Part shown: one piece after another, positions 5,490 to 54,337 of the stretch
Layout: every line of letters starts with the position of its first letter
Numbering within the stretch: position 1 is the stretch's first letter
Source of the DNA: Candidatus Micrarchaeota archaeon CG1_02_47_40
GTDB lineage: Archaea; Micrarchaeota; Micrarchaeia; Anstonellales; CG1-02-47-40
NCBI GenBank assembly: GCA_001871475.1
Contig: MNVE01000016.1
Location: 133,343-197,342 of the forward strand
Direction: 5' to 3'
DNA: 64,000 nt
Position numbers and translations under genes: made by a program
Notes under the pieces: generated by a model
What the model saw: the letters and a program-made list of their open reading frames with translations, nothing else
What the model was told of the DNA's origin: nothing
Database searches by the model: none

Positions 5490-5502
5490 TGGAAAGCACC
5501 AG

Positions 5503-6572: not shown

Positions 6573-6975
6573 AAAAAGAATTGAAGAGCTTGAAAATGCA
6601 GGCGAGTTGCGAAGAAGAAGCCCTGACAAGGCACGGATACGTTCCATGCTGGAAGCGGCAAAGAGAACATCGGAGTATGTGTGCCGGCTTGAAATAAACG
6701 AGGAAAGCGCTGCTGTTGTATTCCGTGAGCTTTATGAATGCTTACGGCAGATTGGTGATGCACTGCTTTGGCGTTCTGGATGGGAGCCGCTAAAGCACAC
6801 AGCAAGCATTGAAGCACTCAAAGAGGAAGTAGGGTATGTGGATTATGAAAAGCTGGACAGGTTAAGGATTATTAGAAATAATGCAAACTATAGGGGATAT
6901 TCAGTAAGCGTGCAAAACGCGCTTGAGATAAAGGAGCTTTGGGAGAAATGGGGAAGAAGGATTGCAGAGAGATAG
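6565..6975 (+). CDS. HEPN-domain protein (toxin partner of MNT)
   Basis: 136 aa helical protein with an R...NNANYRGY-like Rx4-6H-type region, placed directly after the NTase gene. Confidence 0.65.
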   Translation: MDKKRIEELENAGELRRRSPDKARIRSMLEAAKRTSEYVCRLEINEESAAVVFRELYECLRQIGDALLWRSGWEPLKHTASIEALKEEVGYVDYEKLDRLRIIRNNANYRGYSVSVQNALEIKELWEKWGRRIAER

Positions 6976-11294: not shown

Positions 11295-11297
11295 CTT

Positions 11298-33791: not shown

Positions 33792-35332
33792 TTCACATTA
33801 AAGGTCACTCCAACCCTGAAAAGGTTTGATGACGGAAGCTCAATTCCATACTCCATGTTTGAAGGGGTTTTTATGTAGTCTGCATTCAAGCTTACTCCGT
33901 ATTTTGAGTTAAGCTCAAGTGAGAGCGATTTGTTTTTGTTATTCGGGTCAAAGCCTGCGAACATCCTTATTTTCTCAAAATGCGGAACCTTCTTTGAAAT
34001 CAGTCCAACCTCGGCAAGACGGGTGGTTTTTCCAAAGCTTTCCTGCAGAGAAAAACTGCCCGCCAATGCGATTGCAGGCACACCGAGTTTGTCTTCGGGC
34101 AGAGAATACCGCGACTGGTATTCCCCTTTGCCCGAAAGCCCATGGGAGCCTGACAGCTGGACGTTTCCAAGCCCTAATGGAAGATTTAGAGCGGAATCCA
34201 GTTTAAGACGAATATCTGCCTTGTTCTCGCGGAGATAATCGTGCCTTGCGACTACCGTGCCTGCAATGACGCCGGGCGCGTCCCAAATGAGGAAGTGGGT
34301 GCCGACGCCAACTCCGAGGCTGGAAAGAAGAGGCTGTGAAACTGTTTTTGAGGCAAAAGTGCCGTCGTCATTTCTTTCCCACTGGCGGCAACTGGAGTCG
34401 CCGAATTTTAGTTCCACGTTAAGGAAATCCTTGCCAGTCAGGTAATATTGCGTGTTCACTTCCTTAAGGAAGGCATTTCGTATCTCTTTTGCATTCGCAA
34501 GCGCCAGAAATTCCGAGCCTGCGTGTTCGGAAAGCATTTCGGATGCCTTTTTGAAATCGCCGGACTGGATGGCACTTATAAAGTCGCTCTGTGTGTGTCC
34601 GTTGGAGAGGAGTTGCCCCCACATCACATCGGAACTGCCAAGACCGCCGAGAAAAGCCGCCATCTGCCCTGAATCCTTCCCGGAAAGTCCGTCTGAGAGA
34701 AGATTCAGGAAAGCAACTCCGGTATTCATTGATGAGAAAGTAACTGTGTAGAAGAATTGTGTCGGCTGGAATTGCGGGCTGATTTGCTGCACAAAATCAG
34801 CTGAAGGGTGGAAAGAGGGAATTTCCGCAAGGGGCGGGGCTTTTATCTTGCGCAAACCGAAGGTTGCGCCTGAAGCTGTAGTCGAATTCAAGTTTTGTTT
34901 TTTTGAGAAGACGCTCCTTAAGGTGTAGGCATTGATAAGTCCGCAGGCATAGCTTGCAATGTCCTTTGTTTCCCTTTTTTCGGAAGAAGCGGTGAATTCT
35001 TCAAATGTTTTGCGGTAAACGCCCAAAAGAGCCGCCGCTTGCAGGGACTTTAGAAAGCCCTCGCTTAACGCCGTTTCCGTGAAGGGCTTTGCCTCTGCGA
35101 TGGTTTTGTAGCCGCTTTTCCCAAAAAGGAAGCGCATTGCCAAGATGGCGCTCTTTTTGTCCTCAAGATTAACCGCTTGCTTCGCGAGAAAAAGAACCGC
35201 ATCGGTGTCTGGGGCTTTTTTCAGCAGTTTGAACAGCCTTTCCGCCTCTTCCTGCTTCCGGCTGGCGATGGCTGAAAAAAACTCATCTGCAACCCCTTGG
35301 GCGTTTATTTGTTTGGGCGGCATAAACATCAC
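33788..35332 (-). CDS. hypothetical protein, helical N-half and beta-rich C-half
   Basis: Translationally coupled (4-nt overlaps) to both neighbouring giant genes. Confidence 0.5.
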   Translation of the reverse strand: MMFMPPKQINAQGVADEFFSAIASRKQEEAERLFKLLKKAPDTDAVLFLAKQAVNLEDKKSAILAMRFLFGKSGYKTIAEAKPFTETALSEGFLKSLQAAALLGVYRKTFEEFTASSEKRETKDIASYACGLINAYTLRSVFSKKQNLNSTTASGATFGLRKIKAPPLAEIPSFHPSADFVQQISPQFQPTQFFYTVTFSSMNTGVAFLNLLSDGLSGKDSGQMAAFLGGLGSSDVMWGQLLSNGHTQSDFISAIQSGDFKKASEMLSEHAGSEFLALANAKEIRNAFLKEVNTQYYLTGKDFLNVELKFGDSSCRQWERNDDGTFASKTVSQPLLSSLGVGVGTHFLIWDAPGVIAGTVVARHDYLRENKADIRLKLDSALNLPLGLGNVQLSGSHGLSGKGEYQSRYSLPEDKLGVPAIALAGSFSLQESFGKTTRLAEVGLISKKVPHFEKIRMFAGFDPNNKNKSLSLELNSKYGVSLNADYIKTPSNMEYGIELPSSNLFRVGVTFNVK

Positions 35333-38300: not shown

Positions 38301-39204
38301 GGGCGGTTAAGTAATTGCCAAACCCCCCCGCGTATGAGTAGCTGCCAAGGATGTTTGCTACCGTGCATAGCTCTATCGAGAGATAATATGCGTTCATGCC
38401 TTGCGGAGATTTTGAGAATTCCTGCGCGGCATCCTTGAGCCGGTCAGAAAACAACAGCAGGTATCTTGCAAAAGCCGCCGCTTCCCCCCTGTTGGCTTGG
38501 GGTATGCCGTTCATTCCTTGGGCATGTGCCTGGAAATCCCGAACCGCTTGGACGCCGTGGTGGCTTTTAAGGAATTCCGCGAAAAGCTGCGAATATTCCT
38601 GCCTTCGCTCAAGAAGGGAAAGCGAAGCGGAGCCTATCTTGGGACCTTCTTCCTTTTTTTCTTGCTGTGCCGCTGCTGGCTCTGCCGGCAACTTTCTTTG
38701 TTGGGAAAGAGACTGCTCTAATTGATATCTCATTTGCTGCTCTTGAGTTAGGAAAAGATTTTTTTGGAGTTCGCTTATTTTCTTTTGCTGTCCTTCAGTT
38801 TGGGTTGGCGCCAGAAAGAGGGAGTCTGTGCTTAAGGGAGGGCGTTTTTTCCCTAATCTGACTCCGAGTGGGGTTTTTTGCAGTTCCTCCTTTTGCGGAG
38901 CCTGCGGTGTTTTTTTCTTTTCTTTTGTATCTTTTATTCCGTTAAGAATTCCGAGGAGATGAAGGGTCTGCCCTTCAATCTTTATCGCCTTGTTGAACTG
39001 CCCGTCACGGAGCTGTTCGTTGAGGTCGGATATTATCTCTTTCCCCTTCTCTTGACCTAGAAGCTCCTTGAGGATGCCCTTGGACTCTTCCGTCAGGGAA
39101 TAGCTGTTAATCTGCCACTTGTTCTTTTTCAGGATGCCCTGCTCAACAAATTCTTTGAGCTTTTGCTTGTCAAGCTCCTCTGCACGCTTAACCTTCTGCT
39201 CCAA
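35329..39204 (-). CDS. giant hypothetical protein (1291 aa), largely helical/coiled-coil
   Basis: Long uninterrupted ORF. All plus-strand ORFs in the span are short, Cys/Pro-rich and look like antisense. Confidence 0.55.
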   Translation of the reverse strand: MEQKVKRAEELDKQKLKEFVEQGILKKNKWQINSYSLTEESKGILKELLGQEKGKEIISDLNEQLRDGQFNKAIKIEGQTLHLLGILNGIKDTKEKKKTPQAPQKEELQKTPLGVRLGKKRPPLSTDSLFLAPTQTEGQQKKISELQKNLFLTQEQQMRYQLEQSLSQQRKLPAEPAAAQQEKKEEGPKIGSASLSLLERRQEYSQLFAEFLKSHHGVQAVRDFQAHAQGMNGIPQANRGEAAAFARYLLLFSDRLKDAAQEFSKSPQGMNAYYLSIELCTVANILGSYSYAGGFGNYLTAPDGAQLDADAANRVRDYANAFGINDKREFYQTAYDELSKALIGLPATENAKPDFAGRLNESDKALYNGLAQEKQNQLMNEIQLAYVKFLAPVSENERKIVQDALKNYHLSKEGNALIGRSQDALINSRMQAFLDYKLGEEFAKAYGKLEKEPELQAGQTPVLEKTPPVAEEAQKAAATPYELVGNDLKMSDEGRRLLQEVLDGKRSKVELQYGAKQGRGQADLATLQRLSQYGLSAAGREERGIYYLLLTNNKGRELEIPQEEATAKAESPAQITGTAVPADKYGFYADSAEIHLSGYPFAVGFDKMNAPAHIAEIFQKPGEELLIKAILENPEAYLSRSADYYYFYWCFALTFHYDEEKQMFVRADEANKSIMEQYKDVLLQEDSKLKVSNTLLFMEYMMRGLQTSACAELARAQGRMGEGKAAEFGSTYKDVHRTTGNYYDVSGKELGTFASEEEAANKAGAWVKVTDAWSQEERLVYNRYRGDKLTDTKIMADKVMAKYNEYKDISLEQAIDKVANGDEVKKAAIIKGLENTGGIPSAILLAHLAAGVTITGTGSTRFGTDAQHVKVVGDIKEEFGDKAEGVLNVLQPILYGGYDNRKFIDGKKAELGLNDAEITKLKELTNPLRQISSRVAPERGAVEKKALETLAMEIEAQGKVLIGSDYSASLKASLAADAGAPIGEEKKSSTEAKYSLYFSAAKDGVYNLIEGKENIPAQLSSDGTAQVPIPTENEGFVKIAATASNRTLYPNAQTVQQEAIIEVVNVYEVQIPRHDNVKTTSDVKQFGVDAKHDVKGEIDFTGSSMFAYRTDANDRFSFVPEGTKMHYYVLSQEKADEPVYLTDLNGERAGMLTPVPRETILKTDTEGKSGGVILRTNEEGKLVYGEWKGGRAVYKECKEGSPPPVTIGTYSGILPSDIGKIGEQKEEESKLKFMQQGQLASASLRGELIAGKYEKDNSIIVWGTKKNEEFASGMSLNAVKPALYVPVFSGE

Positions 39205-41425: not shown

Positions 41426-42190
41426 TTATATTTTGCCTTTTGGCAGGCGCGAATCCAAAAATGGGAAGACCTCTTCCCATGCGGGTTTGTTTTTTGTCAG
41501 CATATCAAGCGAATTCCAACTTTTCGCCTGCTGATTGATTTTTTTGCGAATATCGCCCCAGTCTGGAATTTCTTTGCATAATGCCATTTTCTGCCTGACG
41601 ATTTCAGGCTCCAAATTTGCGCCTTTTTGCAGAAGAAAGTGCAAGTCATAAACATCCCGCACCTGATTCCGCTGCCATATTGCACGGATTTTTTCTGCTG
41701 CGATTTCTTCCAATTGCATTATGGGCAGAACATAGGAAAGCATATCGGAATAAATCGGCTTTATAGCCAGTGCCTGCGCTGGCATCAGCAAATCCTTTCT
41801 TAATGAAAGGTCAAAGCGCACGGAGCATTTTGAGCGGCTGCTGCCGTCAAAGAGCACTCCTTCTATTAAGAATCTGCCCGATGCTCCGTCTCCAAACGGA
41901 TTGGGCGCCCTTGCAAGCTCGCAACGGTATCCCTGACTTTCCAGCCATTCGGCAGCTTCGTCAAAAACTTTCAGCCGGTGTTCGTTTTCCACGCGCTCGC
42001 AGAAATCAAGGTCCTCGGAAAACCGTTGCAGCCCGTATGCCTTCTGCAGAGCCGTGCCTCCCTTGAAAACAAGCGAAGTTGTTTTTGATGCGATGAAGAG
42101 AAGCAGGAGATGCTGGAAATAATCCTTCTCCTGCTGATTAAGATTGAAGCCTGTGCGCAGTTTGTATCCCTCAAGCTCTTTTCTGTCCAT
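41426..42190 (-). CDS. AbiEii/AbiGii-family nucleotidyltransferase toxin (module 1)
   Basis: LVFKGGTALQKAYGLQRFSEDLDF hallmark. Paralogous to 46704..47450. Confidence 0.75.
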   Translation of the reverse strand: MDRKELEGYKLRTGFNLNQQEKDYFQHLLLLFIASKTTSLVFKGGTALQKAYGLQRFSEDLDFCERVENEHRLKVFDEAAEWLESQGYRCELARAPNPFGDGASGRFLIEGVLFDGSSRSKCSVRFDLSLRKDLLMPAQALAIKPIYSDMLSYVLPIMQLEEIAAEKIRAIWQRNQVRDVYDLHFLLQKGANLEPEIVRQKMALCKEIPDWGDIRKKINQQAKSWNSLDMLTKNKPAWEEVFPFLDSRLPKGKI

Positions 42191-42824
42191 TAAACCGCCT
42201 CCTAAAGCGAATGAATCTTCTCAATGCGCTTTTATTTTGGTAAAGCCTGACAAAATTCTCAACTGCCCTTAAATTAAACCTGCTCGCTCTCCTGAAATAG
42301 GCTGCCGCCGATTCTGTTTCCTCATCACCAGCCAAATCAGGTCTTGCTATGCAGTCTGCAATCGCTTTCTCCCTTCCTGCAACGAAATATTTTTTACTGC
42401 CTGCTTTTGCGGGATGGAACCCTCCGAATGCCCGCGCAGGAGTGCGATGAAAGGTTATTTCATAATTTGCAAATTTTACAGCTCTTGCGGATGCGGCGGC
42501 GGCAACTTGCACCTGCACGGGTATCTGCGTGCCCGCCCCATGAAGGATGAGCGCGCTCAAAAAAGAGATATATGAAGGTCTGATAATCGCAGTTGCGACA
42601 GCTTCTGCCGATTCGCCCGCAAGCGCGTAAAGCCCGTTTTTTATTCTGCAAAGAACCCCGGAAGAGCAAAGGCGGCTTGCAAGCACATACGGCGAATTCG
42701 TGCCTGCAATAAGCCCAAGCATTTTTGTTGAGTATACTGGATTGTCAAGCTCGCGGAGCTTCTCCACCAATTCAAATCTATTCATGGATGTGCTTTGCAG
42801 GGAAAAGGATATAAATATATGCAT
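42171..42824 (-). CDS. AbiEi-family antitoxin/transcriptional regulator (module 1)
   Basis: Lies upstream of AbiEii and overlaps it by 20 nt. Shares HP(S/T)Y(I/V)SFLSA...HG similarity with 45784..46506. Confidence 0.65.
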   Translation of the reverse strand: MHIFISFSLQSTSMNRFELVEKLRELDNPVYSTKMLGLIAGTNSPYVLASRLCSSGVLCRIKNGLYALAGESAEAVATAIIRPSYISFLSALILHGAGTQIPVQVQVAAAASARAVKFANYEITFHRTPARAFGGFHPAKAGSKKYFVAGREKAIADCIARPDLAGDEETESAAAYFRRASRFNLRAVENFVRLYQNKSALRRFIRFRRRFNGQKRA

Positions 42825-42870: not shown

Positions 42871-43896
42871 TTAGACTTTCAGGAATCTGCCTTTTTGCGC
42901 TTTTTTATCCCTGCAAAGCAATGCCACTCTGCTTATTGGGTGTTCGTCCGTGTAAAGATAACCCGTTAATTTTGCAAGATTCTGCGCATACTCCCATATC
43001 TCCTGCATGGAAAGCATATCTCCCAATGCCAGCCCGCGCTTTTCCCTTCCCTTTCCCACGTGCATGTAGCTTTTTACCTCTACAAACATCGGGCGCGCGA
43101 TGGCAATTTGCTTTGCATAACCGTCAATGCCCCCCATATTCAAGCTTCTCACTAAAGTCATCCTCAAAACTGTGCGCGTTCCCTCCCGTATTCTCTTTCC
43201 GCCCATAAGCTGAAGAGATTTGCAGTAATTTTCCCAAAGGGAAGGAGTTTGAGGGCGGCAGGTTTGCAAATAAATCTCTTTGTTTGGGGCTGCCATTGAA
43301 ATGTAAAGTTGGGTTGGAAGAGAAGAAAGGGCTTGGAGGGCTTGCGGAGTGGTGCCGTTAGTTACGAGGAATGTGGTTAAGCCTCGTTTATGGAATTCGC
43401 CTATCAACTCTCCAAGATACGGATATAGAGTAGGTTCGCCCGTTAGTGAGAGCGCTATATGCTTTGGGGAGCGGGATTCTTCGCACAGTTTCGCGGTTGT
43501 TTTTTCATTCCCCCCGTAGCCGGAAACTATGTCCTTTTGCGCTTTGAGAAGCCCTTCTGCTATTTCTTGAGGAGAATCCCACTTGAAGCTGGCAGTAGGC
43601 ATCTCTTCAAATTTCTCCTTCGCCTCCGGCATTATCCTCCAGCAGAATTTACAAGCATGGTTGCAGAAAAGAAGAACTGGGGTGCACTGCACGCACCTGT
43701 GCGAGCTTATTCCATAGAATTTGTGCTTGTAGCAGAATTCCCCTCCCCTTAAGCACTCGCGCAGCCACATGCACCTCTTGTTTGCGGAGTGAGTTCCCAC
43801 TATGTGATATCCCTGCGAGCAAAGCTCGCTGAAAACTTCTGGCGGAATGGTTTTTGGGCAGGCGGGTTTTTGTCCCATATAGGAATATTTGCGCAA
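42871..43896 (-). CDS. taw1: tRNA wyosine-derivative biosynthesis radical-SAM enzyme TYW1/Taw1
   Basis: CNHACKFCWR radical-SAM cluster motif with additional N-terminal Cys. 341 aa. Confidence 0.75.
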   Translation of the reverse strand: MRKYSYMGQKPACPKTIPPEVFSELCSQGYHIVGTHSANKRCMWLRECLRGGEFCYKHKFYGISSHRCVQCTPVLLFCNHACKFCWRIMPEAKEKFEEMPTASFKWDSPQEIAEGLLKAQKDIVSGYGGNEKTTAKLCEESRSPKHIALSLTGEPTLYPYLGELIGEFHKRGLTTFLVTNGTTPQALQALSSLPTQLYISMAAPNKEIYLQTCRPQTPSLWENYCKSLQLMGGKRIREGTRTVLRMTLVRSLNMGGIDGYAKQIAIARPMFVEVKSYMHVGKGREKRGLALGDMLSMQEIWEYAQNLAKLTGYLYTDEHPISRVALLCRDKKAQKGRFLKV

Positions 43897-43936: not shown

Positions 43937-45124
43937 TTGATTTTTATGGCAGTCCAAATAGATATAGACAGGAAAACCTGCGAAATTACCTGCGCTCACC
44001 CTGAAAGCGTTTCTTCACTTGTGAATGGGCATTATGGAATTATGAAGAAAGGGGTGATTTACCTCTATCCCGAAGAAGCGCTCTACTTGGCGGATATCCG
44101 GAATGCAAAATGCTACGACAAGGCAGGAAATGTTTTTCACTTCAATGATTTGGCTTCCCTTTTCCCGCAAAAAAAGCTCATGGCAAGGTATTTTACTTTC
44201 AAGGATTGGAGGGACAGGGGATTGATTGCCCGCCCGGCGCATGAATTGCCTGCAGGGGTGAATTTCGGCAGAAACCCCGTAAAAAAATACCCCAAAGGAA
44301 AATTCCAGATGGACCGCTATTCCCTGCACGGGGCGTTTTACGAGGATGATTTGGTATGCATAATAGATGATTCGGCTGTCGCAAAGGATTTGTATGAGCG
44401 CTACTGGCTTGGGCAGTTTGCCTCTTACAAAGCCGAGCAGAGGGGCAATATTGGCAAATTGGATATGTATGAAACGCTGTTTATGGTGAGAAACTGCCGC
44501 CTCTCAATAAGGGGGGCGGATGAGAAGAAATTGATGAGCGAGGCGAAGAAGAGGAGGAAGGACTTCCCAGCCCTTTACGAGGTGTATGAGGACTGGAGGA
44601 TTAGGGGGTTTGTGCTGAAGACGGGTTTTAAGTTTGGCACGCACTTTCGCTTGTACTTTCCTGGGGCTTCCCCCACGAGGAATACGGATGAGTGGATACA
44701 TTCAAAGCATGTAATACATGTGTTCCCGCGCAATAGCAGGCTGCTCATTTCGGAATGGGCGCGTGCAATACGCGTTGCGCATTCGGTGAAGAAAACATTC
44801 ATACTTGCAATTCCGGGAAAAGAGGAGAAGTGGGAGGGGAAATTGGAAGTTGATTTGGATTTTGCGCTTTACCACCGCAAAGGCGGGGATATAGAAAACC
44901 CCAAGGATGGAAAGCCCAAATACCTTATGCTTTCTCTCTCGGAAGAGGAGGAGATTGGGGGAGCGGAGCTTGCAAAGGCGATTGTGAAATGCAAGGAGGT
45001 CGGGCTTGAGCTTCTGCTTGCGATTGCGGATAGGGAAACTTCGGTTACTTATTATTTGATAAAAAGGATTGAACTGCCGGGAAGCAATTATGAGTATTAT
45101 GAGATAGAATGGGTGCAGCCGTAA
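43937..45124 (+). CDS. endA: tRNA-splicing endonuclease (duplicated alpha2-type)
   Basis: C-terminal catalytic unit GFKFGTHFRLY...H...K plus a degenerate N-terminal repeat. Confidence 0.7.
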   Translation: MIFMAVQIDIDRKTCEITCAHPESVSSLVNGHYGIMKKGVIYLYPEEALYLADIRNAKCYDKAGNVFHFNDLASLFPQKKLMARYFTFKDWRDRGLIARPAHELPAGVNFGRNPVKKYPKGKFQMDRYSLHGAFYEDDLVCIIDDSAVAKDLYERYWLGQFASYKAEQRGNIGKLDMYETLFMVRNCRLSIRGADEKKLMSEAKKRRKDFPALYEVYEDWRIRGFVLKTGFKFGTHFRLYFPGASPTRNTDEWIHSKHVIHVFPRNSRLLISEWARAIRVAHSVKKTFILAIPGKEEKWEGKLEVDLDFALYHRKGGDIENPKDGKPKYLMLSLSEEEEIGGAELAKAIVKCKEVGLELLLAIADRETSVTYYLIKRIELPGSNYEYYEIEWVQP

Positions 45125-45420
45125 GGAACCTTTGACGCTTGTGCGTCAAAATTTGAACGCTCCCGCGTTCAACCCTACGGTTTGAGTGTGCTTCGCACAC
45201 ACGCTGTCCTTCGGACACCTATTGACAACTCACGTTGCCAACTGCCCAACAGCTACGCTGTTGGTTTCTCAAACACCGTGCGAGCAGAGTAGATGCAATT
45301 CTCATCCCGACTGCTCTCACGGTGTTCACCCGTTTGAAGACGAAGTCTTCAAATTTTGCCCGATTGACGCTGAAGGCGTCAAGACTTGTCCGAAGGACAA
45401 GCAGAAGGGCAAATGTTTCC
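45125..45420. repeat. array of ~10 short GC-rich hairpins (5-8 bp stems, 3-5 nt loops), many with TTGAC...GTCAA arms
   Basis: Examples: ttgacgcttgtgcgtcaa, ttgaacgctcccgcgttcaa, gtgtgcttcgcacac, caacagctacgctgttg, ttgaagacgaagtcttcaa, ttgacgctgaaggcgtcaa, cttgtccgaaggacaag. Confidence 0.75.
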
Positions 45421-45439
45421 CTTTTTATTAGCCCGCGAT

Positions 45440-45780
45440 TTTCTATTGCATTTTGTCAAAAAAAGTTTCAAAATGCACTACATTTTGGCGAAAATATTTT
45501 CAAAATGCAAATTTTAAGGATTGACCGCCAGTGCCTGTTTTCTTGCAGAACGATTTTTGGCGAATATTGTTCCCGCGCAGAACAATTTCGTGAGGTGTGT
45601 TTGTTCGGAGTTTGAGCTGAAATTCACTCTTTTTGGTCGGATTTCCGAACAGAAATATGCGTTTTTGGCTCTCTCCTTATTTACGAGGATATTTTTCTTT
45701 GCTTTTTTGTTCGAAGTTTGAGCTGGAATTGAGTGTTTTTGGTCGGATTTCCGAACAAAACCGAGGATGAATTCTTCTTT
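45440..45780. repeat. complex direct-repeat block A (copy of block at 47566..47800)
   Basis: Box ttggcgaaaa..tttcaaaatgc is followed by two tandem ~75-bp units gttcggagtttgagctg(g)aatt...ttttgg.cggatttccgaac...gtttttggctctctccttatttacgagg. Each unit has a ttcgga/tccgaa inverted pair. Confidence 0.7.
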
Positions 45781-45783
45781 TAA

Positions 45784-46506
45784 ATGAGCGTTGAAGTTAT
45801 CAAAAATGATAACTTTAAATACTTTTTGGAAGAATATATTATCATGAATGATACGGAATGGCTCAAGAAACATCCCACAATAAGGCTGGCGGATATAGAG
45901 AGAAGATGCAAAAGCCATAACTACGCCAAGCTCTTTGCGCACAGAATGCAAAAAAAAGGGATTTTGCATAAAGCAGCAAGAGGAATTTATTCCGCTTCTG
46001 AAGAAGTATTTGCAGTCGCATCAAACATTCATTATCCGAGCTATGTTTCTTTTTTGTCCGCTTCCTATTTATACGGCTTTACCGAAACGATACCCCGCAT
46101 AGTTTCCATTGCAGCGGCAAAAAAATACAGCAAAATAGAGTTCAAAGGGTATACGATAGAATTCGTTCGGATGAAGGAGCTCTGGGGTTATAAAAACGAG
46201 AACGGGGTGTTTTTGGCAGAGCCTGAAAAACTGCTGATAGACGCATTCCTAAAGCCAAAAAGCATGGGGAATTTTGAGGAAATCGAAAGGCTCTTTGGAG
46301 GCTCTTTGGAGATAAATGCTGAAAAACTCAAAACCTACCTAAAAAAAACCAATTCAGACAGAGTATACAGGTGCGTCGGGTATATGCTGGAAAAGCACAG
46401 AAAAATAGACATATCGCGCCTTATGCGCATTGATAGGAACTATTATGAGCTGAATCCGTTTGAAAGCGGCGCGGGTATAAACAGAAAATGGAGGCTTAAG
46501 GTATGA
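45784..46506 (+). CDS. AbiEi-family antitoxin/regulator (module 2)
   Basis: HYPSYVSFLSASYLYGFTE...LID similarity to 42171..42824. The likely start is an internal Met near 45844. Confidence 0.65.
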   Translation: MSVEVIKNDNFKYFLEEYIIMNDTEWLKKHPTIRLADIERRCKSHNYAKLFAHRMQKKGILHKAARGIYSASEEVFAVASNIHYPSYVSFLSASYLYGFTETIPRIVSIAAAKKYSKIEFKGYTIEFVRMKELWGYKNENGVFLAEPEKLLIDAFLKPKSMGNFEEIERLFGGSLEINAEKLKTYLKKTNSDRVYRCVGYMLEKHRKIDISRLMRIDRNYYELNPFESGAGINRKWRLKV

Positions 46507-46520
46507 AAAATCGCATTGCG

Positions 46521-46700
46521 ATTGGAGACGATGGATATGGTTGTATTGTTTAGTCTCCAAAACATGACGCTGCAGTGTCATGCAGATTTTTCAGTTGACG
46601 CCAGGGGCATCAAGACTTGCTCAACAGAGCAAGCAGAAATTGACCGGAGGTTTGACGGCGAAGCCGTCAAATTTTGACACCTCCGGTGTCAAAGGTCAAT
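46521..46700. repeat. second hairpin array between AbiEi-2 and AbiEii-2
   Basis: ttggagac-N24-gtctccaa, catgacgctgcagtgtcatg, ttgacgccaggggcatcaa, cttgctcaacagagcaag, ttgacggcgaagccgtcaa nested within ccggaggt...acctccgg, ttgacacctccggtgtcaa. Confidence 0.7.
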
Positions 46701-46703
46701 AAG

Positions 46704-47450
46704 ATGAACACAAAAGAGCTTGGGGAGTATGCCCGTCTGCGGGGCTTGAACTTAGGGCAGGCTGAAAAGGATTATTACCAAAATATACTCCTTTTTCTGC
46801 TCTACGGCAGTGTCTCAAAAGAACTTGTCTTCAAGGGAGGAACAGCCCTCTCAAAATGTTATGGATTAAACAGATTTTCAGAGGATCTTGATTTTACAGT
46901 TCTGGAGGAAAGGGATTTCATTATTATTCTGGAAAAGGGGCTTGGGGAATTTGGCATTCTTCACATGGTAAAGGAGGAGAAAACGGCTGCCCAAAGCAAA
47001 AAATACAGGCTTAAGGTGCAGGGCCCTCTTTACAGAGGGCTTGAGAGAACGCTCTGCTCAATAACGCTTGATTTCAGCTTTAGGGAGAAGGTGCTTTCCC
47101 CTCCGCTTATCAAAACCATCGGGCATCATATGGATATAATACCGGTTTTTGACGTTTATGTTATGAGCCAGAACGAGATATTGGCGGAGAAGATAAGGGC
47201 GCTTCTTGCAAGAAAATCCGCAAGGGATTTGTATGACATTGTTTTTTTATTAAGAAACGGGGCGGTTGTTGATGAGAAAATGATAAGGCAGAAGCTTGCG
47301 CTGTGCGGAATGGAATTTGACAGAAAAACATTCATTTCAAGATGCGGTTTGCTTGAGGGGATATGGGAAAGCGAGCTTAAATCGCTTGTGAAGAATGTCC
47401 CTTCCTTTAAGGAGTATGTTGGAATGGTGAAGGGGAAGGTTGAGAGATAG
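46704..47450 (+). CDS. AbiEii-family nucleotidyltransferase toxin (module 2)
   Basis: MNTKELGEYARLRGLNLGQAEKDYYQ...LVFKGGTALSKCYGLNRFSEDLDF aligns along its length with 41426..42190 (MDRKELEGYKLRTGFNLNQQEKDYFQ...). The ORF-track TTG start at 46674 is rejected. Confidence 0.75.
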   Translation: MNTKELGEYARLRGLNLGQAEKDYYQNILLFLLYGSVSKELVFKGGTALSKCYGLNRFSEDLDFTVLEERDFIIILEKGLGEFGILHMVKEEKTAAQSKKYRLKVQGPLYRGLERTLCSITLDFSFREKVLSPPLIKTIGHHMDIIPVFDVYVMSQNEILAEKIRALLARKSARDLYDIVFLLRNGAVVDEKMIRQKLALCGMEFDRKTFISRCGLLEGIWESELKSLVKNVPSFKEYVGMVKGKVER

Positions 47451-47565
47451 AGAAGAGGGGGATTGAGGGAGAGAGGCGGGTAAGGGGTATCGTTGGGACA
47501 GTAGTGAAGGAGGGAATGAAAGAATAGAGATTGATGAGAAGAATTGGCGCAGGGAGATAAGGATT

Positions 47566-47800
47566 TGGCGAAAAAAGTTTCAAAATGCGCATTTTTTCAG
47601 GATTTGATCGGAGTTTGAGCCAATTTTAAGTGTTTTTGGGGGGGATTTCCGAACGAAAATAGGCGTTTTTGGCTCTCTCCTTATTTACGAGGGGAGTTTT
47701 CTTTGCTTTTTTGTTCGGAGTTTGAGCTGGAATTAGAGGGGATTTTGGACGGAAGTCCGAACGAATTATGCTGGAGGGGCTTATTTTGCCGAATTTTAGG
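47566..47800. repeat. complex direct-repeat block B (copy of block at 45440..45780)
   Basis: tttggcgaaaaaagtttcaaaatgcgc, then two units containing tcggagtttgagc...gatttccgaacgaaaataggcgtttttggctctctccttatttacgagg and ttttctttgcttttttgttcggagtttgagctggaatt. Confidence 0.7.
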
Positions 47801-47896
47801 GGAAATTGGCGCGGGGGGCAAGGAAGGAGGAGGGAGTGAAGCTGATTTTGAAGTTTGAGGAGAGGGGAAAAGAAGCGGGCGTAAGGAAAATGGTTT

Positions 47897-50800
47897 TCAG
47901 AAGGAACGGGTGATTTTCCCATATATGAAGTAATCGTTCTTCTTTGTCGGTTCGTATATCCATTCATCAACAACACCAAATCCGAAGTAGCCTGGCTTTC
48001 CGACGATGCTGCCGATTACTCCAAATTCGCCCTGGGCGGTTGCAGAGCGGATTTGCTCGTATTGGGAAAGACCGAGTCCAAGGCATGCCCTAAACTGTCC
48101 AAAGTATTTTTCACCTTTGAAGCCGCCAGTATAAAGCGGCGCACCTTCATCTTCGCCGTATCCTGCCTGCTTCGTGAAATTGAGCATGTAATTGTAAGTC
48201 CTGCCTGCGTGGGTAAAAGTTACCTTCCAAAGGTCTGAATCCACATAAACCCCATTAACCATAATCGGACCCCAGGCAACCCCCCCCTCTGTGGCAATGC
48301 CTCCTTTGCCTATTGGGGAGTTCGGCGGGAGTTTTTCCGCAAAAAGAAGCAGTTTGAAGTTGTCAAGCTTCCAGATGGCGCCCACACCAAGGTTTGTATT
48401 TTTCAGTTTTTCATCCTCCCCAAGGTCAAAACTGGCGACTACAGAGAAATTATCTTTCAAATCAATCATCGTTGAAACGATGTTCCTTTTCTTTCCGCCT
48501 TCAACTCCGGGTGTTTGGGAAAATGAGAGCATCATGCCCGGCGTTCCATCCTCGCTCCTTATTTTCATTGTGAAATCGCGTATGCTGCCTCCTGCAAGCT
48601 GATTGAGAAGGGAGTAATTATCAGCCCCCATGAATGATGATTTCATCGCTTCAGAAACTGTGTAGAGCGCGGCTTTCTTTTCTACCTCAGTTGAGGCAGG
48701 AGTGTTTAAAACTTCCTGATATGCGCCATATGCACTCTTCAGGGCAGTTAAGTCAAGGTTTTGGGGCACGAAAAGCGAGTATGCGCTGTTCTGCGACGGG
48801 TCTGACCAATTTGCCATAACTTCCATGTCTGCAGTTCCAAGCTTGGTTTGGAGATTTGTGGTGTAGCGGTTGTAGCCCTCTTCGTACTTTCTGTATTGAC
48901 TGCGCATTGTCGTTGCGAGATATTTTCCTTCAAATCCTCCAACGAAAGAGTCAAGCTTTTGCCCTTCGCCCGTCTGGGTTTCATCAACGCGCCATGACCC
49001 AAATCCATATCCTCTTGCAAGAAGCCCTGTCTCTCCTTTCTGGCGGGTGTATTCGCCGCTTTGATATCCTATATTCGCCCCTCCAAAGTGCGAATTGCCA
49101 TTATGATCGCTTAGCGCGATTGTAGCGGCAAGTATGCGCTCGTTTTCAAACTCCTTTCTCGCGGAAGTTGATGCTATTCCTATCTGGTTTTGCGCGCCCT
49201 GCGCGAGTTCGCCCTCAACCTTGCTTATGGTTTCCATGTCGCCATAATTTTGCTGAAAAATGTTTCCGGTGCCTGTGCCGGTAAGGTTGCTAAGCTTGTT
49301 CTCGTTTAGAGTATACCAGCCTATTTTCACTTCGTATTTTTCGCCTGATGCCTGCACGGCTTCGGCGCGCTCCCTTTGAACGGTTTGCGCATTGATTCCG
49401 GCAAACTTGATGCTTTTCCCAAGCGCATCGCTTCCAAGCGCAGCATAGAAGCCAGTATGAGTGCCTGCAACATTCTCCTGCCCTAAAGGAACATCATAAA
49501 TTCTCTGCTGGATGCCTACGCTTCCCTGAAACGCGCCTTCATCATATGAGCCAATGCGGGAGAATATGTTTCCTACCTTTTCAATGGAATCCTGTGATGT
49601 AGTATAAAGCGCTTTTCTGACATCGTCTGTCAAAATGAGTTCAACCCAAGTCGTGCCTGCCATGCGCCAATAGACGTGCAAATCATCCATGTAATTGCTT
49701 GTTTCGCTTGTTTGGGCTTGCGAGCCGGTGCTGTGCCAGTCATAATGCATAAGCAGGGAGGATTGGGCATACGGCGAGCTGTTGAGCTGTGCCACAACAT
49801 TTTCGTTGACTGCCTTGTATGACTGGGATTCCTGCTGTGTTGCCTGTAAATTGTATTGAAGATTTCTGATGAGCGCGCCGCCTATGAGCGGCAGTTTGCT
49901 ATTTTGTATTTCAGCGTATGCCTGCTGATTTGTTGAATCTGTGCCTGCATTTTCAGAGGTGGTTGAGATTACGCCTCCGCTTGCGTTTGAGAGGGGGTTT
50001 ATGGAGTTCCAAACTCCTTCTCCAGTTATTCCTTTGTGTTGTGCATTATCAAACGTGTTGCCTCCTGCAAGCGTGCCGTCTAATGAACCGACTCCGCCCA
50101 TTCTCGGAAAACCCCTTCCAAGCGCCCCCTCAAGAGACTCGTCAAGGGCGCGCTGTGCGAACGTTATGTCTGTGTAGTACTCCCTTTCAAGCCCTCTTAA
50201 GAAGAGCCTTGCAAATCCATCCCGCGTCCATTGCCTGTTCTTGAAAGAGTAAAGCTCCCTGCGGCTCTCCTCAAGCTGATAGGGCATCGAGCTTTGGAAT
50301 GTCTGCCCGATTGTGGTTATTGGGTATGGCTCGTCAAATGGTCCGAATAAATGCCTTCCGAATTGGTCGCGCAAAAACCCGAAAACGTTGTCATAAGGCG
50401 AAATCAGATATTCATTAATTCCGGTTATTGCCGATGGCTTTATGTAAATAATTCCCTTGTCGCTGACACCTATCTGTTCATTGGTGAAATTCGCGACAAA
50501 ATTATCCGTATTCAGGTCGTATTGCGCCATGCTTGAGAAAAAGGCGCCAAGCTTTGCTTTCTTTTCCTCTTGGGTGCCCGGATATCCGTAAACGGTCATT
50601 GCATACTCTGCGGTTGAATTGAGTATTTGCAGCCTTGTGGAGTAATCAACCACTGAAATGTCCGGGAATATTTTTTTAAGCAATTTCTCCTGCCCCATAA
50701 GCTCGTGCATTACGGCATTTGATTTTCCCTTATTGGCAGAAAATAGGTCGCGCAGGGGATTTGCACCGTAAATTGAGTTTGAGATTTCATTTATGCCCGT

Positions 50801-52210
50801 ATCTATAGAGAAGGCCGCATTTGCCATGCTGACACTTCCTGTTGCATTCTGTTCGGGATTTTGGAGTATGCCCCAAATCTGGTTCTGGTTTTGGCTAAGC
50901 CAGTCAAGCCCCTGCGTTATGTGCGTAATGCCGCTCATGTCTGCGCCGCCAACATTCATGCCTGCAAGAAGCTGTTGTTTGTAATCAAGAAGCCTGCCAA
51001 GGATTGGGATGAGCTGCATATTAAAAACGTTTTGCGAAAGGCCGTTTGCAGAGCCAAAAAGATTATTCAGATTTGTATATTCCGTCCTGAAAGCCGCTAG
51101 ATATTGCACTGCAGATTCATAGGCAGGCGTCGCATTCAGGTTTAACTGGGAGATTGGCAGTTCTTTGTTGTTTATCAGGCTTATTCCCTTTAGGATTGTT
51201 TCCATATTGTATACTGAACGCCTGTAAAGATACGCCGCTTCCGGTCCGTTTAAGTTGAATACTTGGTCGGGCAGGACGTTCACTGCTGCAAAGCCGGAAA
51301 CCAGCTCATCTGCCGCCGAGGAATTTTTCTGCCTTGCCCTTTCAAGGTTTCCCTTTATCGCGCCTTCTTCAAGAAGTGCGTTTGCAAGTGATTTATACTG
51401 CTCAAGAATGCCTGCATTCTTTCTGATGCCTTGCGTGTTTATGCCGTGTGCAGTTAGGGTTTTGTCGTAGGCGGACATGTCCGGACCATAAACTGCCTTT
51501 ATTGCAAATTCTGCTGCGGCAGGGATTATCAGAAATTTTCCAGCAGCATCCTTCTTTTCAACATCGTCCAGTTTTCCAATCATTTTTTTTATTGCTTCCT
51601 CGTCGCCCATATAATTGAAAATGTATTCCCTTGTGGCATAATCAACTGCGTTTATAAGTGAAACGCATTTTGCGGCATCCCTTGAGAATGCCTGCAGGGA
51701 TTGCCCAATAATTATATTGCTGTTTTTGAGAAGCTCCAATTCCGTTGCGTCATCCCTAATATTGCTGTGTTTGTCGTCCCATTGCTTGCAGAGGGAGTCA
51801 AAACTCTGCAAGTCGTCCCAGTTTGAATAGTTGATTATCTGCATTGTCAGGTTGAAAAAATCTTTCTTAAGCCCAAGCGTATGAAGCGTCTGGTCAAATT
51901 CATTTTTACCTTCTGTTGGGGTGTATTGTGTGTCGTTGTAGACTTTTTTTGGAGTTGAAACGAGAATATCGCTTTTTGGCAGTTGTGTTGGTGGTTCCCC
52001 GGCTTTCTGTAGAAGATTTTCAAGATTTCGCATATATGCAAGCGCCTTGGCTTGCTCATTTGATTTGTATGCACTTTGAAGATTTCTCAATTCCGCCAAA
52101 AGAGAGGGATATCGCTCGGTGCCTTTAAAGGCATCTACCCTCGTTTGAAACTCCTCTATTTGCCTTGGTTCGATGGAAAGTTGCAGGCTGCCCATAATTA
52201 ACACTCTCAC
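47897..52210 (-). CDS. giant hypothetical protein (1437 aa), Gly/aromatic-rich beta-like C-terminus ending in Phe
   Basis: Last gene of a 4-gene operon. The C-terminal ...GYFGFGVVDEWIYEPTKKNDYFIYGKITRSF has alternating aromatic/hydrophobic residues. Confidence 0.6.
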   Translation of the reverse strand: MRVLIMGSLQLSIEPRQIEEFQTRVDAFKGTERYPSLLAELRNLQSAYKSNEQAKALAYMRNLENLLQKAGEPPTQLPKSDILVSTPKKVYNDTQYTPTEGKNEFDQTLHTLGLKKDFFNLTMQIINYSNWDDLQSFDSLCKQWDDKHSNIRDDATELELLKNSNIIIGQSLQAFSRDAAKCVSLINAVDYATREYIFNYMGDEEAIKKMIGKLDDVEKKDAAGKFLIIPAAAEFAIKAVYGPDMSAYDKTLTAHGINTQGIRKNAGILEQYKSLANALLEEGAIKGNLERARQKNSSAADELVSGFAAVNVLPDQVFNLNGPEAAYLYRRSVYNMETILKGISLINNKELPISQLNLNATPAYESAVQYLAAFRTEYTNLNNLFGSANGLSQNVFNMQLIPILGRLLDYKQQLLAGMNVGGADMSGITHITQGLDWLSQNQNQIWGILQNPEQNATGSVSMANAAFSIDTGINEISNSIYGANPLRDLFSANKGKSNAVMHELMGQEKLLKKIFPDISVVDYSTRLQILNSTAEYAMTVYGYPGTQEEKKAKLGAFFSSMAQYDLNTDNFVANFTNEQIGVSDKGIIYIKPSAITGINEYLISPYDNVFGFLRDQFGRHLFGPFDEPYPITTIGQTFQSSMPYQLEESRRELYSFKNRQWTRDGFARLFLRGLEREYYTDITFAQRALDESLEGALGRGFPRMGGVGSLDGTLAGGNTFDNAQHKGITGEGVWNSINPLSNASGGVISTTSENAGTDSTNQQAYAEIQNSKLPLIGGALIRNLQYNLQATQQESQSYKAVNENVVAQLNSSPYAQSSLLMHYDWHSTGSQAQTSETSNYMDDLHVYWRMAGTTWVELILTDDVRKALYTTSQDSIEKVGNIFSRIGSYDEGAFQGSVGIQQRIYDVPLGQENVAGTHTGFYAALGSDALGKSIKFAGINAQTVQRERAEAVQASGEKYEVKIGWYTLNENKLSNLTGTGTGNIFQQNYGDMETISKVEGELAQGAQNQIGIASTSARKEFENERILAATIALSDHNGNSHFGGANIGYQSGEYTRQKGETGLLARGYGFGSWRVDETQTGEGQKLDSFVGGFEGKYLATTMRSQYRKYEEGYNRYTTNLQTKLGTADMEVMANWSDPSQNSAYSLFVPQNLDLTALKSAYGAYQEVLNTPASTEVEKKAALYTVSEAMKSSFMGADNYSLLNQLAGGSIRDFTMKIRSEDGTPGMMLSFSQTPGVEGGKKRNIVSTMIDLKDNFSVVASFDLGEDEKLKNTNLGVGAIWKLDNFKLLLFAEKLPPNSPIGKGGIATEGGVAWGPIMVNGVYVDSDLWKVTFTHAGRTYNYMLNFTKQAGYGEDEGAPLYTGGFKGEKYFGQFRACLGLGLSQYEQIRSATAQGEFGVIGSIVGKPGYFGFGVVDEWIYEPTKKNDYFIYGKITRSF

Positions 52211-54324
52211 TTAAGCGTTTGGAGATAGAGTATCCTGTTGCTATCGGTTGTAAAGGTATTGAGATCGGTTGCGATTTGAATGAACTCATTTTCGTTGCGA
52301 CTTAATCCGCTAAGTTTAGTTTCAAGCTCGGGAGATATTGAAAGATTCAGTGTGTTCTTCACGAAACCAACCAAATCCGCGCTGCTTTTCACTTCCTCCG
52401 CCTTAATCGGCGCTTGGGCTGGCGTTTCCTCCACCTGCGCTTTTACTGACACTGATTCAGGCAACTCTTCTACCTCCGAATTTTCTTCAGCACTTGTGCC
52501 CGACACGCTAACCTCAAACTCCAGCAGTCCGGCGTCTTTGTAGGCTTCGCTGGCTTTCACTATCTTGTAGGCTTCTTTCAGGCGTTCAGATGAAGACTCA
52601 AGTTCAATAAGTTCGACATACTTGCTTTTAATTGCCTCAAAAAATTCCTTATTTTCAAGCATATGCCGAATCATCTCGGGATTTATCTTCTGGTATTCTT
52701 CACTGCCCATATTGCAGGCTGTAAGGAAATTCTTTAGAGTTTCGGCGTTTTTATCTATCTCTTCTTTCTTCCCTGACTGGAAGTTCTCTTTCAGGTTCCC
52801 TGCACGGTCATTTGCAATTTGACTGATAACATTCCTTAAAGTCACTTTATTGCCGTCTGCGTTCTTGAAAAGAGTGTCGTCTATGTTTCCGGCGCTTATC
52901 CTGCCTGCCTCCTCTTTTGCGTTTGCAAGAAGCTTCTCTTTGTTTTTTGCGTCCTGGCTGATGAGGCTTTTCAGAGTTGTCTCAAGGGTTGCATCAGTTA
53001 TTTCGTATTTGCCGGTTCCCTTCCCATTTTTCTTTATTTCCTTGGCAATTCCGGCAAACTCGGCGCACGCAAGATAGAGTTTCTTATCGTCTTTGTTCGT
53101 CACGTTCGCAAGCCCTGCAAGGTATGCCGACTGCGCCTCGGTTGAGGGCTCAACGAAGAGGGTGTTGTTAGTGCGGTAAGTAATGAGGATTTGGAGAAGC
53201 TCGGAGGAAGCAAATGAGCGCTCGGGTGCGCTGTTGAGAGCGGAGACTGTTGTTTTTCTTCCATTGATGTATAGAGCCGGCTCCTGCAAGCTGATTGCGC
53301 TTGCGATTGCGTTTTTTGCTTGGCTGACGATGGCGTTGATGGTGGAGATGATTGCTTCCCCATTTGGTATGGGTGCTTCGGATTGCACTTCAGTGACATC
53401 AGGCTTTTTCTCAACCGGCTCGTAGTTTCCCTTTATTCCGGTTAATATGTCTGTCCACTTGTCTTTCCATTTCTGCGTTGTCGCAAGAGAGTTCAGGAGC
53501 TCGCTTTGAACGCCCCCATCCTTGTCAAACATCTTCTCAAGCATCGCATCTGCGGTTTCCGCCTTCAGCCCGTCAGCTATTGTTTTTGCCTTCGGATATC
53601 CCTTTGCGGTGAAAAGCGCGAAAAGCTCCCTGAAAAGAAGGGTTTGTTTTTCATCAAGCAGAGTGTTTGCATCCTTTTTTTGCAGATAGCCGACAAACTC
53701 GCTTCTCTTGTGCTTTGTCCTGTCTATAAGCCCGTTCTCAAACATCCATCTTAAAGCAAAGAACGCGCCTTCCTTCATCATCTTCTGCTTCAGGTCGGCT
53801 CCGGTTATGTCCTTGCCCTCTGCCGAGTAGGTGCTGCTGTCTTTTATCTTTTCTTCGGTCGCGGTGTTGAAGAAAGGAATATTGCCAAGAAGGACTTTTT
53901 TGTCGGCTTCTGAAATCAGCTTATTGTATATTGGGCTGAAAACGCCGTCTATGTGAGTGTATGAGAGCGTTTTGGCGGCTGCCGGTGTTGCCGCGTTTTC
54001 AGTTGCAGTAATTCTGTTCAAATCCGCAATGAAATCGTCTACTTTAGAATAATTCTTGTCAGTGCCAGTAAATCCGAAATGGGAAAGATACATGCGCTTC
54101 AAAGAGTTGCCGGAAGTGCGGCAGATATTCCAAGTTGAGTCTATTTTTTGAGTTTTAATGTAATCTAAAGCTTCAACTGCTGTTTCAGCTGCGTTTGTTT
54201 TATTCGGTGGGTTTTCTTTGAGGCAAGTTATTATGCTGTTGCGAAATTTTGCGAGTTCCTTCTCCTGCTCTTGGGAAACCACAGTTTTTTTCAACTGCAA
54301 CTCAAATAAAAACACCATGTTCAT
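52207..54324 (-). CDS. hypothetical helical Lys/Glu-rich protein (705 aa)
   Basis: 4-nt overlap with the downstream giant gene. No motif recognised. Confidence 0.55.
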   Translation of the reverse strand: MNMVFLFELQLKKTVVSQEQEKELAKFRNSIITCLKENPPNKTNAAETAVEALDYIKTQKIDSTWNICRTSGNSLKRMYLSHFGFTGTDKNYSKVDDFIADLNRITATENAATPAAAKTLSYTHIDGVFSPIYNKLISEADKKVLLGNIPFFNTATEEKIKDSSTYSAEGKDITGADLKQKMMKEGAFFALRWMFENGLIDRTKHKRSEFVGYLQKKDANTLLDEKQTLLFRELFALFTAKGYPKAKTIADGLKAETADAMLEKMFDKDGGVQSELLNSLATTQKWKDKWTDILTGIKGNYEPVEKKPDVTEVQSEAPIPNGEAIISTINAIVSQAKNAIASAISLQEPALYINGRKTTVSALNSAPERSFASSELLQILITYRTNNTLFVEPSTEAQSAYLAGLANVTNKDDKKLYLACAEFAGIAKEIKKNGKGTGKYEITDATLETTLKSLISQDAKNKEKLLANAKEEAGRISAGNIDDTLFKNADGNKVTLRNVISQIANDRAGNLKENFQSGKKEEIDKNAETLKNFLTACNMGSEEYQKINPEMIRHMLENKEFFEAIKSKYVELIELESSSERLKEAYKIVKASEAYKDAGLLEFEVSVSGTSAEENSEVEELPESVSVKAQVEETPAQAPIKAEEVKSSADLVGFVKNTLNLSISPELETKLSGLSRNENEFIQIATDLNTFTTDSNRILYLQTLK

Positions 54325-54337
54325 CAGCCTCCTTAAA

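Follow-up and report, generated by a model that had tools for sequence, protein, structure and literature searches.

A cluster of tiny hairpins beside endA in a Micrarchaeota genome, a probable nest of small insertion elements resembling bacterial REP and mitochondrial GC clusters

Clusters of short hairpin-forming repeats have been described in bacteria as bacterial interspersed mosaic elements (BIMEs), as REPIN/RAYT systems and as repetitive extragenic palindromic (REP) sequences tagged with GTAG or CGTC (PMC3733652, PMC2817692). The definition of the REP family places this tetranucleotide at one end of the repeat, outside the stem, and the surveys consulted list bacterial phyla only (PMC3733652). 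Fungal and sponge mitochondrial DNA harbors GC clusters and double-hairpin elements that occur singly or in tandem arrays, insert between and sometimes within genes, have no known transposase and have, in some cases, been proposed to spread via RNA (PMC4478555, PMC2800124). Miniature inverted-repeat transposable elements, or MITEs, have been reported as abundant in some DPANN genomes (PMC11602168), while our literature searches brought up no account of REP-like or GC-cluster-like hairpin repeats from DPANN archaea. Here we describe an array of ten consecutive stem-loops (array 1) downstream of the tRNA-intron endonuclease gene endA in a 64,000-nt stretch of DNA (the window) from Candidatus Micrarchaeota archaeon CG1_02_47_40, an uncultured DPANN archaeon of the Micrarchaeota. 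Array 1 is probably a nest of tiny non-coding, hairpin-forming insertion elements belonging to a lineage-restricted REP/MITE-like family, and by analogy it is most readily understood as the archaeal equivalent of bacterial REP/BIME clusters and mitochondrial GC clusters, and not as a dedicated RNA gene.

Array 1 (45125-45420) is a mosaic of two recurring module types, A and B, and of unique hairpins. It opens with H1 (45131-45150, TTTGACGC-ttgt-GCGTCAAA) and H2 (45153-45172, TTGAACGC-tccc-GCGTTCAA) and continues with H3 (45186-45200, GTGTGC-ttc-GCACAC), H4 (45205-45217, TGTCC-ttc-GGACA), the imperfect H5 (45222-45241), H6 (45246-45264, CCAACAGC-tac-GCTGTTGG), the long hairpin H7, whose 16-nt arms (45272-45287 and 45311-45326) match at 94%, H8 (45333-45353, TTTGAAGAC-gaa-GTCTTCAAA), H9 (45364-45382) and H10 (45385-45401). 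The original prediction of a dense hairpin array, made from the letters alone, had listed eight of these, all of which are present, while H4 and H5 are additional; H10 has the stem CTTGTCC/GGACAAG and the loop gaa. Counted in sliding 300-nt frames, array 1 reaches 15 perfect hairpins per frame against a window mean of 0.63 (sd 1.3), the highest concentration of short perfect hairpins anywhere in the window, and it holds 6 non-overlapping perfect GC-rich hairpins per 300 nt compared with a maximum of 4 in 1.75 Mb of unrelated loci. Folding of both strands, a check suggested with the prediction, yields structures far more stable than those of shuffled sequences, with z-scores of -9.9 for the plus-strand RNA, -9.7 for the minus-strand RNA and -9.9 for the plus strand as single-stranded DNA (ssDNA), and none of 100 dinucleotide shuffles folds as stably. 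Hairpins of the form TTGA...TCAA are enriched in the window (10 vs. 2.2 expected from shuffles), seven of the ten lying within three hairpin sites, but the assertion that most arms in the array are of this kind goes too far, as they account for about half (H1, H2, H8, H9 and, imperfectly, H5). An independently built assembly (L237) has exactly the same sequence for array 1, which rules out an artefact of assembly. No gene is called between 45125 and 45783 in public assemblies, and a coding reading of the open reading frames (ORFs) at 45186-45431 and 45235-45615 was dropped for this reason.

The 41-nt double-hairpin unit pointed out in the original prediction does recur, as module A, with the form TTGACGC-loop-GCGTCAA-GA-CTTGYCC-loop-GGRCAAG-CAGA. 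Copies lie on the plus strand in array 1 (45360-45408) and in a second array, array 2 (46591-46640), on the minus strand in a RelE-like gene (5261-5309) and on the two metagenome contigs L152 and L221. H4 and H5 together form a diverged inverted copy (45198-45245, minus strand; inverted match of 22 nt at 86%), and a variant at 11303-11352 scores 22 bits with a covariance model, R1, built from six module A copies; the 53.9 bits reached by the copy at 45198-45245 follow by construction, as it is one of the six source sequences of R1. Across the six copies, 97.7% of the pair cells are standard pairs and five pairs have changed on both sides, a degree of pairing reached by none of 500 shuffles and lost when the register is slid (27-44% paired). 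Of the seven module A copies, six have the same orientation as local transcription. Module B has the form GTTTGA-nnnC-GAA-Gnnn-TCAAATTTTG and is represented by H8 (GTTTGA-AGAC-GAA-GTCT-TCAAATTTTG, 45332-45358, plus strand), by a copy at 46650-46676 (plus strand) that is 85% identical to it, with the differences paired across the stem, and by an inverted copy comprising H2 and its flanks (45146-45175, minus strand); alignment registers are inconsistent for this module, and only the pairwise observation is reported. Around H9 and H10 lies a 61-nt three-way-junction unit (45354-45414, plus strand) made up of an outer stem TTTGCCC/GGGCAAA, GA, H9, GA, H10 and CAGAA, which is 88.5% identical over 61 nt to positions 1320-1380 of L152, where the outer stem reads TTTGACC/GGTCAAA, a compensatory exchange. 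L152 comes from the same metagenome as a contig 100% identical to the window and may belong to the same genome.

The evidence that the modules behave as insertions comes from three sites at which the element interrupts an arrangement that is compact in homologues. On the minus strand, a RelE/HigB-like toxin ORF (5184-5489) encodes 101 aa, while full-length homologues measure about 86-90 aa (62 homologues), and alignment with 11 homologues shows that the private 14-aa segment of the protein corresponds to the 42-nt double hairpin, an in-frame module A insert (5260-5306, minus strand) flanked by ATTGA (plus-strand TCAAT at 5260-5264 and 5302-5306); without the insert, the protein scores 22.4 bits with the Pfam HigB model instead of 18. 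At the second site the toxin-antitoxin genes AbiEi and AbiEii, which overlap by 4-19 nt in three homologous modules, stand 197 nt apart with both proteins intact, separated by array 2, a 201-nt insertion (46508-46708, plus strand) that holds module A, module B and other hairpins; the original ATGA junction of the two genes is duplicated around it, giving ATGAA flanks at 46503-46507 and 46704-46708. The third site lies between the genes for an M50 peptidase (stop at 11294) and the KEOPS kinase Bud32, where the spacer measures 54 nt compared with 10-21 nt in two relatives and contains a 51-nt module A variant insert (11298-11353, plus strand; ATGGA flanks at 11298-11302 and 11349-11353). Public records annotate Bud32 as 210 aa starting at 11298 (11298-11930), but homologues start at the second ATG, the protein of relatives beginning MKMRGAEA or MAHLRGAEA, so that the first 17 codons of the annotated gene are the hairpin element and the true, ancestral start is the ATG at 11349. 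Each of the three inserts is thus flanked by an exact 5-nt direct duplication, the fixed-length target-site duplication known from MITEs, and all three lengths (42, 201 and 51 nt) are multiples of three. The insert boundaries had been set by the homologues before the duplications were noticed, which makes chance a poor explanation; a simple count puts the chance of such a duplication at roughly 0.5% per event. A bulge-helix-bulge motif around the 42-nt and 51-nt inserts was also considered and rejected, the predicted folds being continuous helices without two 3-nt bulges.

Array 1 itself is likewise absent in relatives. In the two closest ones retrieved (endA 83% and 76% identical) only 23-40 nt separate the endA stop from the stop of a convergent giant ORF, and the 20 kb around their endA are free of GC-rich hairpins of the TTGAC type; the presence at a syntenic position that would be expected of a conserved non-coding RNA (ncRNA) gene is therefore lacking. 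In the window the same interval holds a 2,760-bp block consisting of array 1, AbiEi, array 2 and AbiEii. The block is bordered by a 9-nt direct repeat, CGTAAGGAA, whose left copy (45120-45128, plus strand) includes the endA stop codon TAA and whose right copy (47880-47888, plus strand) marks the right island border 8 nt before the stop of the giant ORF; the sequence occurs twice in 64 kb (shuffle frequency 0.006). Excising 45129-47888 restores the compact layout of the relatives, which identifies array 1 as the leftmost 300 bp of an insertion of 2,760 bp with the AbiE pair as cargo, that is, of a strain-specific toxin-antitoxin island. Within array 1 a nested 146-nt insert (45186-45331) comprising H3, the inverted module A, H6 and H7 is tentatively delimited by GTTTGA flanks (45180-45185 and 45332-45337); this is weak support, as 6-nt repeats are frequent by chance, but such an insert would fit the assembly breakpoints in array 1. 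In five other assemblies of this strain, contig ends fall within hairpin arrays (45180-45201, 45243, 46551): four other assemblies of the same endA end at 45181-45201, one other contig begins at 45243 and another at 46551, all breakpoints being inside arrays. Repeats or polymorphic sites would be expected to behave in this way, and the elements would accordingly be a practical cause of fragmented metagenome-assembled genomes of Micrarchaeota.

How far do these elements resemble the systems described so far? Like REP/BIME sequences, the array hairpins are short GC-rich imperfect palindromes (20-40 nt) that form stem-loops, with stems of 7-9 bp, loops of 3-5 nt and A/T pairs at the foot. The units are lineage-specific and occur in alternating orientation in mosaic clusters, modules A and B each being found on both strands, mostly after genes or between co-directional or convergent genes and occasionally inside genes, and they are probably transcribed into 3' untranslated regions (3'UTRs). 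However, a GTAG or CGTC tag outside the stem is missing, CGTC being found only inside TTGACGC-type stems and not at all in H3, H6, H8 and H10, so that membership in the REP/RAYT group fails; a Pfam scan of roughly 40 window ORFs showed no RAYT gene (Y1 HUH transposase), and the host is an archaeon. The exact 5-nt duplications are a further difference, as IS200/IS605-type transposition of single strands is not known to make such duplications. The yeast mitochondrial GC clusters (the 42-nt GC42) offer a second parallel, in that both are hairpin units of about 40 nt with constrained stems, free loops, a short target duplication and no encoded enzyme, and both are met singly and in arrays, between genes and now and then within them. 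Yet the duplication is 5 nt here and 2 nt (AG) in yeast, nesting in loops to give three-way junctions is prominent here, and the GC clusters are organellar and unrelated in sequence, so the likeness is one of behaviour and not of descent. Rickettsia palindromic elements also insert into genes in frame without destroying them, as seen here for the RelE-like gene and the annotated Bud32 N-terminus, but they are bacterial and 100-150 bp long, while the inserts here measure 42-51 nt. With MITEs, finally, the modules share a non-autonomous, multi-copy and structured nature and target-site duplications. The MITE-like family among the three options of the original prediction is therefore borne out with regard to insertion behaviour, the modules recurring as datable insertions with short duplications and the array being absent in relatives, but a canonical MITE it is not, since terminal inverted repeats are missing from the two smallest inserts and their core of 37-46 nt lies below the usual MITE size.

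A mechanism that would account for these features can be outlined. Small non-autonomous elements may insert at short AT(K)RA/TTGA-like (TTGA/ATGRA-like) sites exposed in hairpin loops through a 5-nt staggered break, in a transposition-like or templated-repair process, with a mobilising enzyme that would act in trans and be encoded outside the window. Every insertion would add new TTGA/TCAA feet and loops, so that hairpin sites would seed further insertions and grow into arrays, which would explain why so many arms are of the TTGA...TCAA type. Four of six module A copies do lie in the loop of an outer stem and form a three-way junction; besides the 61-nt unit with its TTTGCCC/GGGCAAA stem at 45354-45414 and its counterpart on L152, such a stem is found on L221 (GCCGCACGA/TCGTGCGGC) and at the M50/Bud32 site (11289-11364), where a 9-bp stem is contributed by the host flanks. 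C-GAA-G triloops are of the type that forms very stable DNA mini-hairpins. Their frequency here and the equally stable fold of the ssDNA make a single-strand DNA stage plausible, while an RNA stage is left open by the sense orientation of six of the seven module A copies and by a related hairpin in a tRNA intron described below. In the RelE-like and M50/Bud32 inserts, the foot of the first hairpin arises because the left target copy pairs with a complementary stretch carried by the insert (TTGA/TCAA and TGGA/TCCA, respectively), and at the island border CGTAAGG, within the left repeat, pairs with CCCTACG (45173-45179) and closes a three-way junction around H1 and H2. We could not account for this pairing pattern by a known mechanism. 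A bolder variant of the proposal sees in these sequences structured mobile elements of a new, ultra-small class (about 40-60 nt) in DPANN archaea that find their targets through base pairing, insert into loops and pass through an RNA or ssDNA intermediate, or that are even mobile mini-introns cut from transcripts by the broad-specificity splicing endonuclease of the lineage; removal as mini-introns would account for their tolerance in frame in genes and in a tRNA intron, but we consider this variant very doubtful.

The family appears to be restricted to this Micrarchaeota lineage. A scan of 185,579 species-representative genomes with a module A pattern (TCAAGACTTGN{9,12}CAAGCAGA) returned 101 matches, compared with about 70 expected by chance, none of which showed the required hairpin complementarity. 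Among the matches listed for metagenome contigs two are true copies (L152 and L221), viral contigs contained no true copy of either of two patterns, and short contigs reached via flanking proteins added no new copies. On L152 (Ga0066640_10004498) an intron-bearing tRNA-Arg(TCT) missed by ARAGORN was noticed at 4877-5103, whose cloverleaf is restored once about 30 nt are deleted from the D/anticodon region and some 120 nt from the T-loop, giving a T-arm GCGAG-TTCAAAT-CTCGC; the T-loop intron is a string of mini-hairpins, among them CTTGACGC-ttc-GCGTCAAG. The intron borders share only CAA as a direct repeat, which is uninformative. Another Micrarchaeota contig, L244 (GCA_016212395.1), carries four perfect hairpins at 1729-1803, between a PF1765-like gene and a Toprim gene, with the foot ACAAG...CTTGT / GACAAGTC...GACTTGTC; as this foot differs from that of the window, lineage-specific families may be common in Micrarchaeota.

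Several observations must be set against a reading as mobile elements. The count of copies covers about 67 kb of the genome plus two short contigs and gives four loci with about eight module copies, and no further copy of H3, H6 or H7 turned up in the accessible data. Mobility is deduced from comparison with relatives at 50-83% protein identity, and an empty allele was not seen within the same population at any of the sites. Neither a transposase (Y1/HUH, TnpB or DDE) nor a reverse transcriptase or integrase was detected by Pfam in the roughly 40 scanned window ORFs, and the window holds no insertion sequence element. Direct reading of the 37-nt and 46-nt cores reveals no terminal inverted repeats in any register allowed by the 5-nt duplication, so the duplications are left without a known cognate enzyme class. 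Moreover, intrastrand template switching can produce compensatory changes in perfect palindromes without any selection, and the loops of the forward strand, which are rich in GAA/GNRA, could together with the sense bias of module A reflect selection at the RNA level.

This last point leads to the reading as a functional structured RNA, either a cis-acting 3'UTR or intercistronic element or an ncRNA of the protein-sponge type, with the dispersed copies representing the same regulatory motif. The predicted structure is indeed very strong and backed by compensatory changes, the sense bias agrees with it, the forward-strand loops are often GAA, GCAA or GUGA, and the related hairpin in the tRNA intron indicates that such structures are tolerated in RNA. 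Archaeal transcription terminates at oligo-T, and the first run of at least five T downstream of the endA stop (45421-45425) comes only beyond the array, behind an AAGGG...CCCTT stem (45404-45428, plus strand) that is a candidate archaeal transcript end, so that the array would be the 3'UTR of endA. As a cluster of intrinsic terminators the array fails, since T runs do not follow each GC-rich stem, and the claim that it is no simple terminator is upheld by a scan that found no terminator-like site within 45125-45420. A sigma-70 promoter scan, which does not cover archaeal promoters, gave one weak minus-strand match inside the array. Searched against Rfam 15, the whole window gave no match at gathering score, and with E-values up to 10 the region 44900-45800 returned noise, the best hit in the array reaching 16 bits against a cut-off of 47 bits. 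ARAGORN found no tRNA, as had been anticipated, and by eye the array did not fit RNase P or SRP signature motifs, nor did the strands of the three-way junction (GA / GA / CAGAA) suit a hammerhead-like core. An AbiE-associated RNA analogous to type III toxin-antitoxin systems was rejected because the hairpins are absent from three AbiE homologue loci and from the first AbiE module of the window. What speaks against a dedicated RNA is the absence of locus conservation in relatives and of an Rfam match, the equally good folding of the minus strand and of ssDNA, the lack of conserved loops that could serve as a common protein-binding motif, the presence of copies within coding sequence and, on L152, in a divergent promoter region, which would be odd for a 3'UTR element, and the fact that AbiE homologues work without the spacer. 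A structured RNA in this sense is thus unlikely; of the structured-RNA option in the original prediction, a transcribed 3'UTR is possible, while locus conservation, a matching family and a recognisable promoter did not materialise. Roles in stabilising the endA or AbiE transcripts, in setting the AbiEi:AbiEii ratio or in binding an RNA-binding protein are possible as exaptations. If array 1 is a nest of insertion elements, it would probably still be transcribed as the endA 3'UTR up to the T run and may incidentally protect or terminate the endA transcript, as REP/BIME sequences do in bacteria, as a by-product and not as the cause of its existence.

Two further explanations tie the hairpins to the AbiE genes. 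The array could be a functional end of the mobile island, a recombination or replication site similar to ssDNA-folded attC sites or transposon-end hairpins, given that it adjoins the left 9-nt repeat, that a second array lies within the island and that the AbiE cassette is also flanked by direct repeats of about 230-270 bp. This is quite improbable, because the right end has neither matching hairpins nor an inverted repeat, modules also occupy places far from the island ends, within the RelE-like gene and between M50 and Bud32, the island encodes no integrase or transposase, and neither the first AbiE module (41426-42824) nor the AbiE cassettes of L242, L244 and L245 have such arrays. A genuine integron attC site was rejected, as no attC-like R''/R' core (RYYYAAC/GTTRRRY) is visible by eye at the borders and the arrays consist of multiple hairpins instead of a single bulged one. 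The remaining option of the original prediction, a cluster of palindromic operators with TTGAC/GTCAA half-sites to which AbiEi, another helix-turn-helix (HTH) regulator or some other dimeric DNA-binding protein would attach, draws on the recurring TTGAC-N8-10-GTCAA arrangement and on the position upstream of the autoregulated AbiEi gene. It is disfavoured by the observation that inner stem bases and loops co-vary so as to keep pairing, the bases between the half-sites always being self-complementary, which an operator spacer would not need to be. Half of the hairpins have no TTGAC foot, copies lie in a coding region and in a tRNA intron, over 350 bp separate the end of the array from the AbiEi start downstream, AbiE homologues do without hairpins, and the 55-nt repeats at 45600-45760 with their GTTCGGA...TCCGAAC motif are better candidates, making an operator cluster the most implausible of the readings considered.

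By inspection, direct repeats of about 230-270 bp (about 45487-45760 and 47545-47770) stand on either side of the AbiE cassette, and of these BLAST aligns about 160 nt (45600-45756 vs. 47603-47762, 84% identity); the upstream repeat contains two 55-nt units (45600-45654 and 45706-45760, 89% identical), each carrying the GTTCGGA...TCCGAAC inverted repeats, and these are likely the operator/promoter blocks of AbiEi. The bracketing repeats suggest a duplication of the cassette or recombination. AbiEi (45844-46506, with the true start at 45844) and AbiEii (46704-47450), both on the plus strand, are full length compared with their homologues, and 660 nt of non-coding sequence lie between endA and AbiEi. 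The first AbiE-like module of the window (41426-42824, minus strand) comprises AbiEii and an upstream 217-aa ORF and lacks TTGAC-type hairpins; it is missing from the syntenic thioredoxin-Taw1 interval in both relatives and hence represents a second independent toxin-antitoxin insertion within 3 kb.

The two-domain endA (43937-45124, plus strand), next to Taw1 (42871-43896, minus strand), encodes a product of 392 aa, with which a protein of Candidatus Micrarchaeota archaeon CG11_big_fil_rev_8_21_14_0_20_47_5 shares 100% identity. With an N-terminal domain and two matches to the catalytic domain of tRNA-intron endonucleases, the endA product is the fused multi-unit form expected for the Micrarchaeota lineage; its position next to the hairpin array appears to be a coincidence. 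The convergent giant ORF (1,437 aa, stop at 47897) belongs to runs of very large ORFs (30852-39204 and 47897-56410; 979, 514, 1291, 1437, 705 and 690 aa) that keep their position in relatives, match Pfam only through CARDB repeats in one of them and are probably surface proteins. A CDC48/VCP-type AAA ATPase (7150-10692) measures 1,180 aa compared with 734-742 aa in relatives and contains a LAGLIDADG domain at residues 786-854, which points to an intein that the relatives lack. Directly after the Orc1/Cdc6 gene (4100-5182) lies a defence/toxin-antitoxin cluster (region 4100-6975) that includes the RelE-like toxin, a putative antitoxin of 93 aa and an HTH-nucleotidyltransferase (5871-6572) together with its 136-aa partner.

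Taken together, if array 1 is indeed a nest of insertion elements, a streamlined Micrarchaeota genome of about 1 Mb carries a family of self-seeding insertion elements of 40-60 nt that split operons, as between AbiEi and AbiEii, lengthen proteins by peptide segments, as in the RelE-like toxin and at the N-terminus annotated for Bud32, sit in tRNA introns and break metagenome assemblies. In practice, genome annotation would have to reckon with spurious N-terminal extensions, overlooked tRNAs and contig ends. The datable insertions, the 5-nt duplications and the preference for loops would moreover provide a handle on what moves hairpin repeats that encode no enzyme, a question posed as well by the bacterial CGTC-type REPs and the mitochondrial GC clusters.

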